This document shows positions 17,259-64,000 of a stretch of 64,000 nt of DNA, in pieces. Under the pieces are notes generated by a model. It saw only the letters and a list, made by a program, of their open reading frames with translations, made no database searches and had not been told where the DNA came from. The translations under genes were made by a program, and so were the position numbers. Numbering within the stretch: position 1 is the first letter of the stretch; each line of letters starts with the position of its first letter. This DNA is from a virus (lineage: Duplodnaviria; Heunggongvirae; Uroviricota; Caudoviricetes): IMG/VR virus record IMGVR_UViG_2571042005_000001, positions 48,446 to 112,445 of that record, one strand, 5' to 3'.

Positions 17259-17335
17259 TGGCGATCCGGGCAGGATTTGAACCTGCGACCCTGCGTTTTG
17301 GAGACGCACGCTCTACCAGACTGAGCTACCAGATC
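17259..17335 (-). tRNA. tRNA-Trp (anticodon CCA), 77 nt with encoded CCA
   Basis: The reverse complement folds by eye into a cloverleaf: acceptor GATCTGG/CCGGATC, D-arm GCTC-AGTCTGGTA-GAGC, anticodon stem TGCGT/ACGCA with loop CTCCAAA, T-arm GCAGG-TTCAAAT-CCTGC, discriminator G, CCA. Confidence 0.8.
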
Positions 17336-22538: not shown

Positions 22539-22570
22539 TTCATTGTATATCATTCAGATATACTTGTCAA
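22539..22570 (-). promoter_or_regulatory. Perfect-consensus sigma70-type promoter (minus strand) TTGACA-N17-TACAAT with a palindromic operator (GTATATC...GATATAC) in the spacer
   Basis: Read on the minus strand: ttgacaAGTATATCTGAATGATAtacaat. A near-identical copy sits at 63479-63510. The adjacent inverted repeat TGACATTTGATGTCA at 22602-22616 may be a second operator. Confidence 0.6.
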
Positions 22571-22642
22571 CGCTTAAACCGCTCTGGGAAGGCAAAAAAT
22601 CAAATTGTTAAACAGAAAACATCAAACAAATGACATTTGATG

Positions 22643-47992: not shown

Positions 47993-48817
47993 TCATTTGA
48001 GTTGCACGAAGGGGACGGTGCCCCCAGAGTAAGTGGGCAGTTTCCCATCCCATTTCTGGATGGCTTCGTATTGCACCAGTTGAGGGGTGATGGTTTTGGC
48101 TTTGAGTTTTGCTGCTTCAGCGTCCGCTTTGGCTTTGGTGATGATTTCGTAAGCCCGGGTGTCGGCTTGCAACCGGCGCTTTTCGGCTTCTGCGCGGGTG
48201 GCTCGGATTTCGTTTTCGCGCTGGATGGCTATTTGTGTGGCTTGCTGTGCAGCGTCAATGCTCTGTTTGACTTCGCGGGGCAGGATGATCTGCCCGGTGA
48301 ACATGAAGTTGTCCACCTGAATGAACTCCTTGGAGAGCCTTTCGCGGATCGCTTGGGCCACTTTGAGTTGAAATTCGGGGCGTTTGGTGCCGTTGATTTC
48401 CATTGCGCTGTACTGGGAAGCCACCGAGGTCACTGCGTCTCGCACAATGTCCCGACCTACGGTGTCGATGATGTCAGGGGATTGCTTGCCGTATTTGCTG
48501 TAAATGTTGGGGGTTTTGCCGCGCTCGAAAGCCATGGAGAAAGCCACGTCCGCGGAGAGGGACAGGCCTTCTTTGCTCTGGAATTTCAGGTTGTCTTCGG
48601 CTTTCCATTCAACGCGCTGCAGGCGCACTGGGAACACGATGATGTCCTCAGTGAACGGGTTGTAGGTGATGCGTCCAACCACGATGTTGCTGGTGGTGAC
48701 TTCACGTTTCGCGCCGAGCGTGTCCACCCGGATGGCTTCCTCGTCGGGGTTGACGGTGGTGATGGCGCAGGAGGTCATAAAGGCGATGGCCAGAAACAGG
48801 AAGGGGTGCTTTTTCAT
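47993..48817 (-). CDS. SPFH / band-7 (prohibitin-stomatin-flotillin) domain lipoprotein (274 aa)
   Basis: Lipoprotein signal MKKHPFLFLAIAFMTSC (lipobox MTSC). The SPFH-like core is followed by a long Ala/Glu/Lys-rich coiled region (EIRATRAEAEKRRLQADTRAYEIITKAKADAEAAKLKAK). Confidence 0.65.
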   Translation of the reverse strand: MKKHPFLFLAIAFMTSCAITTVNPDEEAIRVDTLGAKREVTTSNIVVGRITYNPFTEDIIVFPVRLQRVEWKAEDNLKFQSKEGLSLSADVAFSMAFERGKTPNIYSKYGKQSPDIIDTVGRDIVRDAVTSVASQYSAMEINGTKRPEFQLKVAQAIRERLSKEFIQVDNFMFTGQIILPREVKQSIDAAQQATQIAIQRENEIRATRAEAEKRRLQADTRAYEIITKAKADAEAAKLKAKTITPQLVQYEAIQKWDGKLPTYSGGTVPFVQLK

Positions 48818-57258: not shown

Positions 57259-57333
57259 TGGAGGTCAGGGCAGGAATCGAACCTGCAATCTGCCCTTTAC
57301 GAAAGGGCTGCTCTGCCATTGAGCCACCTGACC
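57259..57333 (-). tRNA. tRNA-Thr (anticodon CGT), 75 nt with encoded CCA
   Basis: The reverse complement gives a cloverleaf by eye: acceptor GGTCAGG/CCTGACC, D-arm GCTC-AATGGCA-GAGC, anticodon stem GCCCT/AGGGC with loop TTCGTAA, T-arm GCAGG-TTCGATT-CCTGC, discriminator T, CCA. Confidence 0.8.
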
Positions 57334-58561: not shown

Positions 58562-58623
58562 GGGCACACTTTTTGATATTGTTCAAATTTTACAGAGGGC
58601 AGAGATGAGCAAAAAGTGTAACC
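58562..58623. promoter_or_regulatory. Operator: imperfect inverted repeat (GGGCACACTTTTTGAT ... AGCAAAAAGTGTAACC) in the Cro/CI intergenic region, inside an AT-rich divergent promoter region (58510-58710)
   Basis: The arms CACACTTTTTG and CAAAAAGTGTA are reverse complements (10 of 11 positions), separated by about 30 bp. The same ACACTTTTTG core recurs at 59846, 59937 and 60150. Confidence 0.5.
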
Positions 58624-58710
58624 AGAGGTTTGTAAGCTCCGTGTGATACGTGATATAGAATCATTTATATTACTGAGTACCCTAAATGCAGGGTTGGAGG
58701 AAGGTCCAGA

Positions 58711-59284
58711 GATGCCAAGGAAACCCGTTGCAACACCCAAGCCAGAGAAGATCATTGATGCCAGGGATGCCGGGCTGGCTTTGAAGCATTGGATGAAGAG
58801 CCACATCAATCCGAGAACAAACCAGCGGTGGACGCTTGACGAGTTGGCTTCCGTCACGGGGATCAGTCGAACCACTTTGGGGCATTACCTTTCTGGGAAT
58901 CGAGATCTTCGCAAAATCACCCAACCGATTGCACAGAAATTGCTGCCTGTGCTGGGGATGACGGATCAAGAGTTTTGGGATTATTTTGATGTCCCGCAGA
59001 AACGGTGGGCTGAGGTGCGGGTGTTTGATCAGCCGGTGCAGCGTCTGGAAGCGGAGACGCTGCACATTGTTGCTCAAGATGAAATCAAAGGTGAATGGCC
59101 CATTGCTGTGGGCATTCACCTTTACGTGCAGCCAGATGAAGGCACTGGCTTTTTGTTGTTCAAAGTGGGCGATGAGCTGAGGACTTACCGGAGCGATTCG
59201 GCATTCATTCCTGCAGGAGCAAAATCAGTTGGCGCGATCCTATGGGCTGATGCAGAGCCTCTGCTGCGCGCATTGCGTCGCTGA
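58711..59284 (+). CDS. CI-like repressor, XRE-family HTH N-terminal domain plus uncharacterised C-terminal domain (190 aa; start MPRKPVAT with RBS GGAGGAAGG)
   Basis: HTH segment WTLDELASVTGISRTTLGHYLSGNRD. Divergent arrangement with the Cro-like gene. No clear S24 Ser-Lys dyad was seen in the C-terminal domain. Confidence 0.5.
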
Positions 59285-59483
59285 AATGTTCAGGTTGCAC
59301 CAAAATCCGCATGTGTTCCCCTTCTGGCTGCATTTGCAGGGGGAAGCGCCTAGCGAGCAGGGCGGCTTCCCGAGGGGTCAATTTCACGGTGAGCTCTCGG
59401 GTGTAAGTGGATTCAAAATGTTGGGTTGTTGTCATGAGGGGTTCCCGGGGTGGTGCCGAATTGCAACCTGTGCTTGTGGTTGT

Positions 59484-59720
59484 TTATGATTTGCAGTTCA
59501 AAATGAGGGTTTCAACTTCTTGCATGTTTTGCTGGACCACATAATAGTAGTCCGCATCACCATACCGGCGACTTGTGTAAAGAATCCATTCGGATTCCAG
59601 CAAGTCGCGTTGTTCTCTGGTGAGACCTGTCCCGATGCAGACTAGTCCATCCAATTGGTATTCTGCGGGGAAGTTGCTCCTATTTGTCGATGGTGCAGTC
59701 ACAAAAAACCTCCGTAACAC
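59484..59720 (-). CDS. Hypothetical protein (78 aa)
   Basis: Minus-strand ORF. Confidence 0.3.
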   Translation of the reverse strand: MLRRFFVTAPSTNRSNFPAEYQLDGLVCIGTGLTREQRDLLESEWILYTSRRYGDADYYYVVQQNMQEVETLILNCKS

Positions 59721-59943
59721 AAGATATTGCGATTCAGGTTATTACAGGGTTGTTTGAATAAGGTATCACACTTATACGAATTAAGGAATTACACCTATCT
59801 GAAAAGGGGGTTTTGGGGTAAGTGAAAACCCCTAAAGTTTGTAAGGTCACACTTTACATTTTCACCATGCACTCATGCGTCAATTTTTGGGGTTTTTGGG
59901 CGTGTTTTGACGCCTCAAAGACAAGCAACCCCCGCAAAAGTGT

Positions 59944-59975
59944 GACCAAAAAGAACCCCCGAATGGTTCGGGGGT
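59944..59975 (-). terminator. Rho-independent terminator (minus strand) downstream of the TPR gene and small ORF
   Basis: CCCCCGAA-tgg-TTCGGGGG stem followed on the minus strand by TTCTTTTTGG. Confidence 0.55.
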
Positions 59976-60032
59976 CCAAAGTCCCATCTTGAAGTTCAGC
60001 AACTGGCGCAAGGCCCGGGAGGATTTCCTCCA

Positions 60033-60149
60033 TCAGCATATGCAGCAGAAGGGGTGGCCAGAGAGAAAAGGGCAACAAGAACCAGACTCAGCATACGTCT
60101 CATCATGATCTAAACGTATGCTGAATACCACGTGAAATCTCAAAAGCAT
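60033..60149 (-). CDS. Candidate small peptide gene (38 aa: MLLRFHVVFSIRLDHDETYAESGSCCPFLSGHPFCCIC), start 2 nt after the TPR gene's stop codon
   Basis: It shares a reading direction with the TPR gene and lies between that gene's stop and the terminator at 59944-59975. Hydrophobic N-terminus and Cys-rich C-terminus. It overlaps an 11-bp perfect inverted repeat (tcagcatacgt-N16-acgtatgctga, 60088-60125), which could instead be an operator or hairpin. Confidence 0.3.
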   Translation of the reverse strand: MLLRFHVVFSIRLDHDETYAESGSCCPFLSGHPFCCIC

Positions 60150-60151
60150 GG

Positions 60152-61606
60152 TCACACTTTTTGATTGATGAAGGGCGAAATCAAGTCCAGCACTGGCTGC
60201 AGGATCAAAGGGTACACCCCGTGCCGCTCCATGGCTTCCCGGTGACGGTAAGCCTGGGTGCGTCCCCTGCGGGGCAATTTTTGACCAGACAGAACCCCCA
60301 GAGCGAGTCGAACCATGTATTTTTTGGGGCAACCCGGGTATTTTCTGTTCCGCCATTTTGCCTTTTCGTAGGTGACCACCACATAATCTTCGACGTGCTT
60401 CTGGAGCCCTCCGAACCGCTCGGACAGCAGGTACATGACCACTGGGGTGAAGTTTTTCATCCACGTGATCAGGAATTGCTGTTCGCCTTCAGGAAGGTGT
60501 TTGAACTGCCCCACCATCATTTTTGCAGCTTGGTCCAGCTCTGGGCCCCGAGGCAACTCTGGGAGGTTCGCATGAATCTGGATTTTGGTGGCGTAGTACA
60601 TCAAGGCCAGCACCGGAATGCCTGTGGTGGGGTGCCGGAAACTGCTGTTGAGGTGCTCCAGAGCGGTGAGGTCGTGGTGCAAGCTCTTGGCAAGGGCCAC
60701 AACGGCATGTGAAACAAAACCGTTGATTTCACCCCGGTTGGCCCCGGCATGCTTGGTGATGGCGTCCACGAGCTGCTGGCGTTCGTCGGCCACCTCTTCG
60801 GTGTGCATCAGCATGAAATTCAGGTGGTAATGCTCGTAGAGTTTGCCCAACTTGCGAAACAACTTGGCAATCCACGGCAAGAATGCCTCCGGTGCCTCTT
60901 CGTAGTTGTCCCGACTGAACTGGCCTTGCAGTTCAGCGATGGCTTTCTGCATGTGCAGGGGCAATTCTGTGGTGGGAGATGACTGCATCCAGGCGATCAT
61001 CCCCAGGTACTCCTGGCAGCCGACGTACATCAAACTGTTGGGCACGCAACCCTGCATGACACCCTTAAAAGCATGGGTGGCTGCACTAAAATCACCCCGG
61101 AACAAACGCATGCGTGCCATTTCATAGGAAGCAATCCACTCGGCGTTCTGGTCGCCGGTCATTTTGGCGATTTTGATTGCATCAAACATCCGAATGTCGG
61201 CCTGCGTGTGACGCCCGATCTGGTTTGCAGCGGTGGCGACTGCGAGCAGCAGGCGGAACCTTGCTTCCACATCCGTCCCAGTATTCACTGAGATGTCCGG
61301 GTTGAGGCTCTCAGCCATCATCTTCAACTGCGCTTCATTGGCCCTGCGGGTCAGGATGGCAAAGTACCAAGCTTTGCACAACTGGCAGCCCTTGTGCTGG
61401 TACAGCAACGCCAGAGCTTCATCGATCTGGCCGAGCCTGGACAGGATCCGGGCGATCCTTGCGTCCCGGATGCTGGAGTCCGGCAACTGCCGCAGGGCAG
61501 CCAGCAGGTCAGCATAACGGTTTGTGGCTTCAACCTCTGCATAAAAAGCCGACCATTCCACGTGCTGGTGGATCAATACATTCAATTTTTCTGCATCGGG
61601 AATCAT
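60152..61606 (-). CDS. TPR-like helical-repeat regulatory protein (about 484 aa; start MIPDAEKLNV)
   Basis: Helical repeat composition throughout, with recurrent A/L/Y/W-rich pairs of helices. Located two genes from the CI-like repressor. Preceded by an AT-rich promoter region (61610-61660). Confidence 0.55.
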   Translation of the reverse strand: MIPDAEKLNVLIHQHVEWSAFYAEVEATNRYADLLAALRQLPDSSIRDARIARILSRLGQIDEALALLYQHKGCQLCKAWYFAILTRRANEAQLKMMAESLNPDISVNTGTDVEARFRLLLAVATAANQIGRHTQADIRMFDAIKIAKMTGDQNAEWIASYEMARMRLFRGDFSAATHAFKGVMQGCVPNSLMYVGCQEYLGMIAWMQSSPTTELPLHMQKAIAELQGQFSRDNYEEAPEAFLPWIAKLFRKLGKLYEHYHLNFMLMHTEEVADERQQLVDAITKHAGANRGEINGFVSHAVVALAKSLHHDLTALEHLNSSFRHPTTGIPVLALMYYATKIQIHANLPELPRGPELDQAAKMMVGQFKHLPEGEQQFLITWMKNFTPVVMYLLSERFGGLQKHVEDYVVVTYEKAKWRNRKYPGCPKKYMVRLALGVLSGQKLPRRGRTQAYRHREAMERHGVYPLILQPVLDLISPFINQKV

Positions 61607-62693: not shown

Positions 62694-62914
62694 CAGGAAG
62701 CCCTCTGATTGATGTACTGGCGGAAGTGTGTTTCAGCGTCCTTGCGGGCGTAGAATTCTTCTCTGGCTTTGGAGACGGCTTTGTTGACGCAGGTGCGGCA
62801 TTCGGTTTTGCCACGCACCCAGTTGCCGCAGTCGGCATCTTTGACTTCTTTGCAGGATGAGCACAGGCGGGCGAGGGAGGAAAAGGCGGGGCCTTTCATA
62901 CGGCCACCACCCAT
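62693..62914 (-). CDS. Small Zn-finger protein (73 aa; CSSCKEVKDADCGNW ... CRTC)
   Basis: Four-Cys pattern and basic composition. Confidence 0.4.
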   Translation of the reverse strand: MGGGRMKGPAFSSLARLCSSCKEVKDADCGNWVRGKTECRTCVNKAVSKAREEFYARKDAETHFRQYINQRAS

Positions 62915-63411
62915 CCAGCACCTGTGTTGCTGCGCTTGTGGATTTCGATGGCGGCCTGCAAGTAGTCCATGATTTCGCGCATTTCGCCGCGTTTGATTTC
63001 GGTGAAGCTGGTGATGGTGCGGCCAGTGACACGGGAAGCGAGTTCTTTCTGATTGACGCGCATGCCGGTGCCCTTGTTCATTTCGCCGAGGGTGCGGTGA
63101 AACTGGTGGGCTTCACCCAAGCTGAGGGTGGTTTCGGCAAGGTCGATGCTTTCGGTGGTGACGGGCTGGAACTGCATGCGCTTGCCGGAAGCATCGAGGG
63201 TGTTAACAACTTTGAGGATCCAGCGGGCGGCGTCTTCGATGGTTTGCAGTTTGCCGTTCACGTGCACTTCCACGGTGTCGCCGGTGCGAGTGGCTTCAAC
63301 GTTGAAAGTTTGGGCGGGGGTGTCCATCCATTCGCGCTCGCTGATGGTTGCGGCCACTTTCAGGTAGCCTTTGTCTTGCATTTTGCTGGAGAGGGTTTGT
63401 AGAGTGTTCAT
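62896..63411 (-). CDS. Hypothetical early protein (about 171 aa; start MNTLQTLS with RBS GAGGTGGA)
   Basis: First gene behind the consensus promoter at 63479-63510. Confidence 0.45.
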   Translation of the reverse strand: MNTLQTLSSKMQDKGYLKVAATISEREWMDTPAQTFNVEATRTGDTVEVHVNGKLQTIEDAARWILKVVNTLDASGKRMQFQPVTTESIDLAETTLSLGEAHQFHRTLGEMNKGTGMRVNQKELASRVTGRTITSFTEIKRGEMREIMDYLQAAIEIHKRSNTGAGWVVAV

Positions 63412-63478
63412 TGATTCCACCTCAACTGGGATTCCTGTAGAGGACGCTTGCTGCCAGGCGGTCTGTCCTCTCAGGTGA

Positions 63479-63532
63479 TTTCATTGTACATCATTCCGAT
63501 ATACTTGTCAATCTCTCGGATATACAGTATCA
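63479..63532. promoter_or_regulatory. Back-to-back divergent promoters sharing the -35 region. The minus-strand promoter is TTGACA-N17-TACAAT (63479-63510). The plus-strand promoter is TTGTCA-N17-TATCAT (63504-63532), which gives a leaderless transcript for the HTH gene. GATATAC operator half-sites sit in both spacers.
   Basis: Read on the minus strand: ttgacaAGTATATCGGAATGATGtacaat. This is the second copy of the 22539-22570 element. Read on the plus strand: ttgtcaATCTCTCGGATATACAGtatcat, with the ATG only 6 nt downstream at 63539. Confidence 0.55.
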
Positions 63533-63538
63533 TTTGGG

Positions 63539-63770
63539 CATGACACACGATGACCTCGAACAACAACTGGCCGAACAACTCAAAACCCGCATGGCCCAGC
63601 AAGGCCACACCCAAGAAAGCCTCGGGCTGGCCATCGACCCAGCCGCCAAACAACCCAGACAAAACATCCACCAGTACCTCTCTGGCAGTCGCAGTTTGCT
63701 GGTCGGCACCACCCTCAAAATCCTGAAAGCCCTCGGAGCCAAACGCATCCACATTGAATGGAAAGACTGA
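63539..63770 (+). CDS. Small XRE-family HTH protein (77 aa), probably leaderless
   Basis: HTH segment QGHTQESLGLAIDPAAKQPRQNIHQYLSGSRS. The ATG lies at the predicted transcription start. Immediately followed by the iteron array. Confidence 0.5.
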
Positions 63771-63990
63771 CCCGAGACCTTTTTGTGTGGTTTGTCCCCA
63801 GAACAGAGACCTTTTTGTGTGGTTTGTCCCGGGCCCAGCAGAGACCTTTTTGTGTGGTTTCAGCAAAAGCCCCAGCAAAAGCCACCTGTAGACACAGGGA
63901 CCTTTTTGTGTGGTTCAAAACCCACCACCACCAAAACACCGTTCTGCACAAGATTTCCTCAGAAGCCCAGAACAGAGACCTTTTTGTGTG
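63764..63990. repeat. Iteron-like array: at least 5 direct copies of GAGACCTTTTTGTGTGGTT at irregular spacing (32, 35, 57 and 77 bp). The array runs to the window edge.
   Basis: Copies at 63764, 63796, 63831, 63888 and 63965. Copies 2 and 5 share the longer unit cccagaacagagacctttttgtgtg. Confidence 0.75.
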
Positions 63991-64000
63991 ATTCACCCCC

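Follow-up and report, generated by a model that had tools for sequence, protein, structure and literature searches.

The right-hand end of a 64,000-nucleotide stretch of tailed-phage DNA (IMG/VR record IMGVR_UViG_2571042005_000001, positions 48,446 to 112,445; the whole stretch is called the window below) carries a small gene for a helix-turn-helix (HTH) regulator, two divergent promoters overlaid by a pair of palindromes, and an array of at least five short direct repeats that runs to the last bases of the sequence. The locus is best read as two modules side by side: a putative genetic switch and an array of the iteron type. The arrangement is well formed but ordinary-looking, and a key partner gene is missing from the data.

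The regulator gene occupies positions 63540..63770 of the plus strand and encodes 76 amino acids (aa), one fewer than the 77 first reported for it. Its product is identical to WP_034340852.1, a ‘transcriptional regulator’ of Deinococcus misasensis. Family profiles recognize the protein weakly: the Pfam HTH_3 match has an E-value of 0.006, under the Pfam cut-off, and the PHROG ‘transcriptional regulator/repressor’ families match at E 0.005-0.012. Sequence and profile searches against the PDB were uninformative. An exhaustive HMMER search of 1.8 billion representatives yielded 8 homologues (75-86 aa, 38-51% identity), and in the resulting family of nine, three members give weak hits to HTH_3 or HTH_31, the best at E 0.0006.

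Structure prediction is more telling. An AlphaFold2 model built from the nine-sequence alignment reaches a pLDDT of 91.7 and places helices at residues 5-21, 25-32, 39-47, and 56-64; the single-sequence model had low confidence, and a fold search from it was meaningless. When the alignment-based model was compared with the PDB by Foldseek, the top matches were all lambda-repressor-like HTH proteins (TM 0.6-0.76, probability ~1). HipB is the best of them (TM 0.70-0.76, rmsd 2.2 Å), and further matches include C.Esp1396I, C.Csp231I, the 434 repressor N-terminal domain, ClgR, and the TP901-1 CI N-terminal domain. The modeled structure thus confirms, at fold level, the XRE/HipB-type HTH that the original prediction had proposed. 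HipB, the controller proteins, the 434 repressor, and their kin act as dimers on inverted-repeat DNA.

The Logan gene caller chose, instead of the plus-strand gene, an antisense open reading frame (ORF) of 135 aa (63471-63878, minus strand) that lies over the HTH gene and three of the repeats. Substitution patterns identify the plus-strand gene as the real one and the antisense ORF as spurious, because the five substitutions that variant contig L011 (92.6% identical) carries in the overlap divide into 4 synonymous and 1 non-synonymous in the plus frame, against 1 and 4 in the antisense frame.

Upstream of the gene, a scan of 1.2 kb found two sigma-70-like promoters where 0.3 would be expected. 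The leftward one (63483..63511, minus strand) reads TTGACA-N17-TACAAT, with 11/12 matches, its -35 box at 63511-63506 and its -10 box at 63488-63483. The rightward one (63505..63533, plus strand) reads TTGTCA-N17-TATCAT, with 10/12 matches, its -35 box at 63505-63510 and its -10 box at 63528-63533; in L011 this -10 box becomes TATGAT, still a good -10 sequence. The -35 hexamers overlap by 5 nt. Both promoters, and the overlap of the plus promoter with the minus-strand -35 region, are as first described. Their geometry is not the face-to-face one claimed at the time: they stand back-to-back, diverging from a shared -35 region.

The ATG of the HTH gene at 63540 begins 7 nt after the rightward -10 box, and the intervening TTGGGC holds no Shine-Dalgarno (SD) sequence. 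From this -10/ATG geometry the HTH mRNA is predicted to be leaderless, starting at the A of the ATG. In Deinococcus deserti, ~60% of mRNAs begin at or very near the start codon (PMC4007540). Leaderless starts are therefore usual in this genus and draw no special parallel to lambda cI. The leaderless gene of the original prediction keeps its support from the ATG position and the missing SD sequence, while the analogy with lambda cI transcribed from PRM, and the peculiarity that it implied, fall away. Downstream, a terminator scan found no terminator-like site on the plus strand between 63770 and the array; the sole plus-strand candidate is a weak 5-bp stem ahead of the fourth repeat copy. Because no terminator separates the HTH stop codon from the first copy, rightward transcripts from the switch promoter probably enter the array.

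Two 19-bp palindromes of the form 7-N5-7 lie across the promoter pair, 21 bp apart. Operator O1 (GTACATC-ATTCC-GATATAC, 63486-63504) lies over the leftward promoter, where it takes in the -10 box and the spacer. Operator O2 (GTCAATC-TCTCG-GATATAC, 63507-63525) spans both -35 boxes as well as the rightward promoter's spacer. The two GATATAC half-sites noticed earlier are present, each one base to the right of its reported position: they begin at 63498 and 63519 and form the right halves of O1 and O2. GATATAC occurs 4 times in the window (0.12 expected). The full palindrome GTATATC-N5-GATATAC, with up to 3 mismatches, has three sites in the 64 kb where 0.04 would be expected, namely O1, O2, and a site at 22545-22563. 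In L011 the half-sites of O1 and O2 are unchanged, and the N5 spacers and neighboring bases are altered.

The third palindrome is a perfect GTATATC-N5-GATATAC (22545-22563) and sits in a second copy of the leftward promoter (22540..22571, minus strand), 30/32 nt identical to 63480-63511. Its sequence suggests that this promoter copy is probably under the same 76-aa regulator. The copy lies upstream of a gene starting at ~22489. Adjoining it, at ~22594, is a 40-mer with a GC of 0.20, more AT-rich than any other in the window. Positions 22540-22640 may mark the start of a second regulated operon, or may even be an origin-like spot.

Homologous loci bear on what the regulator recognizes. The closest homologue (P0003, locus L020, GCA_014646895.1) has three ATCAATC-N5-GATTGAT palindromes upstream, with the same 21-bp spacing and different half-site letters, at 5904-5985 of L020 (BMOD01000018.1) between divergent genes. 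That the palindrome letters change along with the protein speaks well, though circumstantially, for binding of 7-N5-7 operators by the HTH family. None of the three homologue loci examined (L020, L021, and L022) has a downstream repeat array, and they have nothing else in common with this phage. The targets of the 76-aa protein are thus likely to be the O1/O2 palindromes rather than the repeats. The original prediction, in which the adjacent HTH protein binds the array, is disfavored, since the family is tied to operators in its own promoter and the three homologue loci have no array. The L020 contig itself is 106 kb long and carries a DEAD helicase, TGT, a DnaE-type polymerase, and an S24 LexA/CI-like protein; it may be another large Deinococcus-type temperate phage.

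The array begins 4 nt after the HTH stop codon. Its 19-bp unit, GAGACCTTTTTGTGTGGTT, occurs in five plus-strand copies within 63774-63993 (up to 3 mismatches; 0.02 expected). Pattern searching places exact copies at 63774..63792, 63806..63824, and 63841..63859, a fourth with one mismatch (GGGACC...) at 63897..63915, and a fifth, also with one mismatch (...GTGTGATT), at 63975..63993. At up to 3 mismatches, no further copy lies outside the array on either strand of the 64 kb, and a search with a 13-mer core gives the same picture of five copies confined to the array. At least five direct repeats straight after the HTH gene had been claimed, and five are confirmed. Start-to-start spacings are 32, 35, 56, and 78, leaving gaps of 13, 16, 37, and 59 nt between units; the irregularity and the minimum of 32 bp agree with the spacing reported before, and the maximum is 78 bp rather than 77. 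The conserved unit extends to ~21-22 nt, CAGAGACC...GGTT(T), with CA added on the left and usually T on the right.

The spacers differ completely in sequence and length, and the cores are exact or nearly so. Over the last 600 nt, variant contig L004 (99.06% identical) differs by four substitutions; every one of them is in a spacer, and the cores, 95 nt in total, have none. This would agree with selection on the core, but taken by itself it is not significant. The array has a GC content of 0.47-0.52, against 0.58 for the window. The layout amounts to five direct, non-coding copies of a 19-22-bp unit, all on the plus strand, and iteron origins are recognized by at least three direct, non-coding repeats of 17-22 bp. 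In its spacer between copies 3 and 4 (63861-63883) the array also holds a small tandem repeat, CAGCAAAAGCCC x 1.9.

Several other natures for the repeats were considered and rejected. A protein-coding repeat does not fit, since the spacings 32, 35, and 56 are not multiples of 3 and successive copies fall in three frames in every crossing ORF. The unit (19-22 nt) is shorter than CRISPR repeats (23-47 nt) and the gaps are irregular (13-59 nt), so the early judgment against a CRISPR array holds. A structured RNA was set aside on the lack of any Rfam match at E up to 1 and a fold z-score of 0.11 relative to shuffles.

Both the exact 17-mer and a two-copy core pattern were sought in viral, genome, and metagenome contigs, where they found unrelated tandem repeats only (L005-L009). 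Those are tandem-repeat arrays in one Myxococcales metagenome-assembled genome and four metagenome contigs that share the 14-15-mer (G)GACCTTTTTGTGTG; roughly estimated, chance would yield about as many matches in collections of that size.

The way in which the available sequences end adds a further element. Logan contig L003 (SRR3313967, from the same strain) is 100% identical to window positions 24348-63996 and ends at 63996. L004 (SRR18106136), 99% identical, also ends at 63996, 3 nt past copy 5, and the window itself stops four bases later, at 64000. The array therefore reaches the edge of the sequence, as first described, with copy 5 closing at 63993. From the coincident ends, it is likely that the public contig also ends here. 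In the Logan contigs, the final 30-mer begins at 63967, exactly where the long unit form CCCAGAACAGAGACC... common to copies 2 and 5 begins. An assembler working at k=31 stops at such a point when another near-identical copy exists elsewhere, and the simplest reading of the break is that the array continues past 63996 with at least one more copy.

Attempts to see past this point gave the following. Exact-protein look-ups with the HTH protein, the 171-aa protein of the leftward operon, the antisense 135-aa product, and a 142-aa protein returned only contigs ending at 63996 or earlier, and a 96%-identical relative (P0002) ends within the HTH gene. With a six-frame translation of the array as protein query, not one of 8000 word candidates passed at E up to 10. 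A walk from the left window edge led to head and tail genes only. In the genome collection, the two-copy pattern found nothing else attributable to D. misasensis; provided that this assembly is in the collection and its remainder unmasked, the null makes it less likely that another contig holds many more closely spaced copies.

Taken together, these features suggest a switch beside orphan iterons. In the switch, the presumably dimeric 76-aa regulator, made from a predicted leaderless transcript, would most likely bind O1 and O2, and their occupancy would control both its own synthesis and the long leftward early operon. The third, perfect operator in the duplicated promoter at 22.5 kb would join the same switch. 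The array would be the platform on which another sequence-specific protein loads, one that recognizes direct repeats and whose gene would lie past the contig end; a replication initiator and/or a partition protein of the ParB type is the likeliest candidate. The repeats would then represent the iterons of a phage replication origin and/or centromere, built like the ori/parS arrays that secondary replicons of Deinococcus carry. This reading of the array, as iterons for replication or partition served by a protein encoded off-contig, is the one favored here, at a level of confidence that stays a little short of an even chance.

Several observations weigh against such a function. No initiator or partition gene is visible beside the array. 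In 63400-64000, which holds only the visible part of the array, no DnaA box TTATCCACA was found at up to 1 mismatch, and this visible part has no AT-rich unwinding element; the lowest 40-nt GC, 0.325, lies in the promoter. The contrast between conserved cores and variable spacers depends on 4 substitutions (p ~0.1). No relative phage carrying the array was found for comparison in the phage, plasmid, IMG/VR, GTDB-genome, and JGI-metagenome collections. The unit is not significantly similar to those of the D. radiodurans arrays cisMP and cisII compared below (shared string AAAGGTsTC; shuffle p 0.13 and 0.23), and four of the six Deinococcus parAB loci examined lack such an upstream array. The break of several assemblies at one base could instead mark a true structural boundary, for instance an att junction at which excised and integrated forms are mixed, or the end of a transposon-like element or of a replicon.

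The gene content of the window frames these points. Its GC content is 0.58, it is phage-like along almost its whole length, and nearly all of its genes are on the minus strand. At 8-16 kb, profile scans find a large terminase (Terminase_6C) and an S49 head protease, along with a C5 methylase. An ORF of tape-measure size is cut by the left window edge; another Logan contig, from the same run as one that ends at 63996, stops at ~304, within this ORF. Early genes span ~43 kb. This long early region encodes Rha, a D12 methylase, DUF5131, a PAPS reductase, a Band-7 protein, and a metallophosphatase, together with a 762-aa protein that bears an excisionase-type HTH. Two tRNA genes, tRNA-Trp(CCA) at 17259-17335 and tRNA-Thr(CGT) at 57259-57333, both on the minus strand, lie amid phage genes, away from any visible prophage boundary. 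A CI-like HTH_3 protein is encoded at 58712-59284 on the plus strand, as found by profile scan.

The first gene of the long leftward (early) operon, 62896..63411 on the minus strand (an ORF that is also a Logan gene call), encodes the 171-aa protein. This protein has no match in Pfam, PHROG, or NCBIfam, its homologues are near-identical ones only, and sequence and profile searches against the PDB were uninformative. Nearly every protein of the phage lacks homologues in the collections searched. BLASTN, TBLASTN, and related-loci scans of those collections found essentially no relatives of the phage as a whole.

Among the scanned ORFs of the window, Pfam, PHROGs, and NCBIfam gave no match to an integrase, serine recombinase, DDE transposase, Rep initiator, ParA, or ParB, and no scanned ORF matched the rve, DDE, or AAA families. 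The Pfam marks precomputed for the Logan contigs that span 24.3-41.2 kb and 52.9-64 kb are in agreement. The replication module is still missing, because no Rep, Par, integrase, or transposase is recognizable in 64 kb that do contain a terminase, a protease, tRNAs, and early genes.

An extrachromosomal phage-plasmid state is a live possibility, because the 64 kb hold no integrase or replication module, two tRNA genes are present, and the source is ~112 kb long. The element may thus be maintained outside the chromosome. A more specific proposal goes further: a ~110-kb extrachromosomal Deinococcus phage-plasmid resembling P1 or SSU5, whose origin and/or centromere consists of megaplasmid-type iterons placed directly 3' of a leaderless cro-like gene, with read-through from the switch activating or silencing replication or partition. 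This combination is considered unlikely, though worth keeping in view. We know of no P1/SSU5-like phage-plasmid described in the Deinococcus phylum.

Near the CI-like gene lies a second set of repeated sites. The motif GGTCACACTTTTT has five copies at up to 2 mismatches, all within 58562-60162, arranged as inverted pairs that flank the upstream region of the CI-like gene and the region before a 484-aa gene. Judged by this placement, the CI-like repressor probably has in this cluster a set of operators of its own. If so, the phage has a second immunity-type region. The array unit and GGTCACACTTTTT have CTTTTTG in common, in the same orientation (shuffle p ~0.03), and their remaining words (GGTC/GACC, CACAC/GTGTG) come in a different order. 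A link by inversion between the two, as once suggested, was rejected, since the words are rearranged and form no block inversion. The idea of one recognition family reduces to this single 7-mer in register.

Among the competing explanations of the array, the one that survives best places it at the physical end of a prophage, where the repeats would be recombinase-binding sites: either the arm sites of a tyrosine integrase (attP/attR) or the sites of a transposase (as in Mu attL or Tn7). Assemblies would then stop here since integrated and excised, or differently inserted, forms coexist. The common end of the two Logan assemblies, which come from different samples, and the window end four bases on are what this explanation expects. 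The terminal ...TTCA-C would also fit a CA end, with CA at 63994-63995, a coincidence that has a chance of ~1 in 16. The order of features, with a small regulator directed towards the end and then uneven direct repeats to the terminus, resembles that of Mu c-attL, and five arm-type sites in ~220 bp would be normal for an attP. The core of an attP/attR, often matched by a tRNA 3' end in the host, would fall outside the sequence together with the host flank; both tRNA genes of the window are internal. Yet the window has no recognizable integrase, DDE transposase, or MuB-type ATPase and no inverted copies of the motif; an element of more than 64 kb is too big for a Mu-like phage, and the head genes (Terminase_6C, S49 protease) are lambda/HK97-like. 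The final 30-mer of the Logan contigs, moreover, starts at the long repeat form (63966/7), and a break of a k=31 assembler at this point needs no boundary. A prophage end is rather doubtful on this balance.

Another explanation makes the array a regulatory site (a decoy, an immunity site, or a roadblock) for the 76-aa HTH protein, the 171-aa protein, or the CI-like repressor. The start of the repeats directly behind the HTH stop codon and the CTTTTTG shared with the motif clustered around the CI-like gene speak for it. The fold matches of the HTH protein, however, are dimeric regulators (HipB, C-proteins, 434 repressor), and palindromes are present in its own promoter, whereas the repeats are asymmetric and all in one orientation. 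Its homologues at three other loci do without a downstream array. Regulator sites usually lie at promoters, whereas the motif is found nowhere else in the window. A regulatory role is accordingly judged quite improbable.

Least probable of all, with little weight left to it, is an array that has another function or no dedicated one (a remnant of tandem duplication, a packaging-recognition site, or sites for host factors): Tandem Repeats Finder does read copies 1-3 as a 32-35-bp tandem repeat, but a 19-nt core kept in five copies between wholly different spacers points to selection on the core over recent duplication, and the terminase genes are 49 kb away from the array.

The preferred reading of the array as orphan iterons draws on its likeness to known replicon arrays, above all in Deinococcus itself. 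In D. radiodurans, 18-bp direct repeats form arrays upstream of parAB, with 11 copies on chromosome II and 8 on the megaplasmid (Maurya & Misra 2020, PMC7671480). A plasmid that cannot replicate by itself is maintained autonomously when it carries such an array; DnaA and the cognate ParB bind these arrays, and their loss by deletion lowers replicon copy number (PMC7671480). At the D. radiodurans MP1 locus, seven copies of TCCCGCAAAGGTGTCGCTA (19-24 nt) were located, with spacings of 32, 87, 36, 32, 77, and 55, the array ending 160 bp before parA. On plasmid NZ_CP092195 of Deinococcus sp. KNUC1210, the interval from parB to a gene with the annotation ‘replication initiator protein A’ holds 9-10 copies of the 19-nt CCGGTARCTTTGGGGGAAA, most of them at steps of 32-33 bp. 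The iteron-like architecture proposed at the outset is borne out by this layout, which MP1 and NZ_CP092195 share with the window.

The correspondence with cisMP and cisII extends to several features: the same genus, asymmetric units of 18-19 bp in one orientation, 7-11 copies against at least 5, and a GC content of ~0.47-0.52, under the genome mean. With cisMP the window array also shares an irregular spacing whose shortest step is ~32 bp and whose larger steps are 55-56 and 77-78. Differences are equally clear. cisMP and cisII lie directly upstream of parAB, and no parAB is visible beside the window array; they contain DnaA-box-like sequences and AT-rich stretches, none of which appear in its visible part; and they belong to chromosome-like replicons, whereas the window array is on a phage. 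Kinship in sequence with cisMP or cisII was rejected, as the shuffle p-values are not significant. The link to the Deinococcus arrays is thus a likeness of kind, resting on an analogy of architecture and not on homology. A general rule that Deinococcus parAB operons carry such arrays was likewise rejected, with iteron arrays at 2 of the 6 loci examined. Among the loci examined, D. gobiensis plasmid P5 (L014, 1201-1870) has a CRISPR-like array with a 61-bp period just upstream of parA, and in a Deinococcus sp. KNUC1210 plasmid (L016, 1624-2907) an iscB gene is inserted between parA and parB.

Iteron origins are also familiar from plasmids and phage-plasmids, e.g. the P1 oriR with incC/incA, F ori2, and RK2. 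The window array resembles them in its multiple direct copies, in the 17-22-bp range of the unit, in partly irregular spacing, and in being non-coding. Those origins differ in having an adjacent Rep gene, where none is visible beside the window array, and an AT-rich DNA unwinding element and DnaA boxes, which were not found in its visible part.

With the early-right region of lambdoid phages (PR-cro-cII-O, ori-lambda), the locus shares a small HTH gene at divergent promoters, paired operators, and iteron-like repeats downstream, towards which transcription from the switch promoter would run. The lambda iterons lie within the O gene and are themselves inverted repeats, whereas the window repeats are intergenic and asymmetric. 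The window also differs in having a separate CI-like gene with its own motif cluster 4 kb away, and the likeness of the 76-aa protein to Cro or CI stops at the fold and does not extend to homology in sequence.

Mu attL, the Tn7 ends, and the lambda attP arms offer the last likeness: direct repeats of ~20 bp, uneven spacing, continuation up to the assembly stop, and a regulator gene pointing to that end. The window differs in having no detected transposase or integrase, no inverted copies at a second end in the 64 kb, and a lambda-like head module.

Deinococcus phages are almost unsampled, which gives the locus its interest. If the array is confirmed, it would be a first cis-acting replication or partition element for a Deinococcus phage, and it would offer a genus poor in genetic tools a candidate for a small replicon or an incompatibility determinant. 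The switch offers a compact, testable circuit: a HipB-like repressor, two 19-bp operators, a shared -35 region, and a duplicated operator 41 kb off. Set beside the systems compared here, the locus is no departure from known kinds: it is a repressor switch next to orphan iteron-like repeats, in an almost unknown group of phages.

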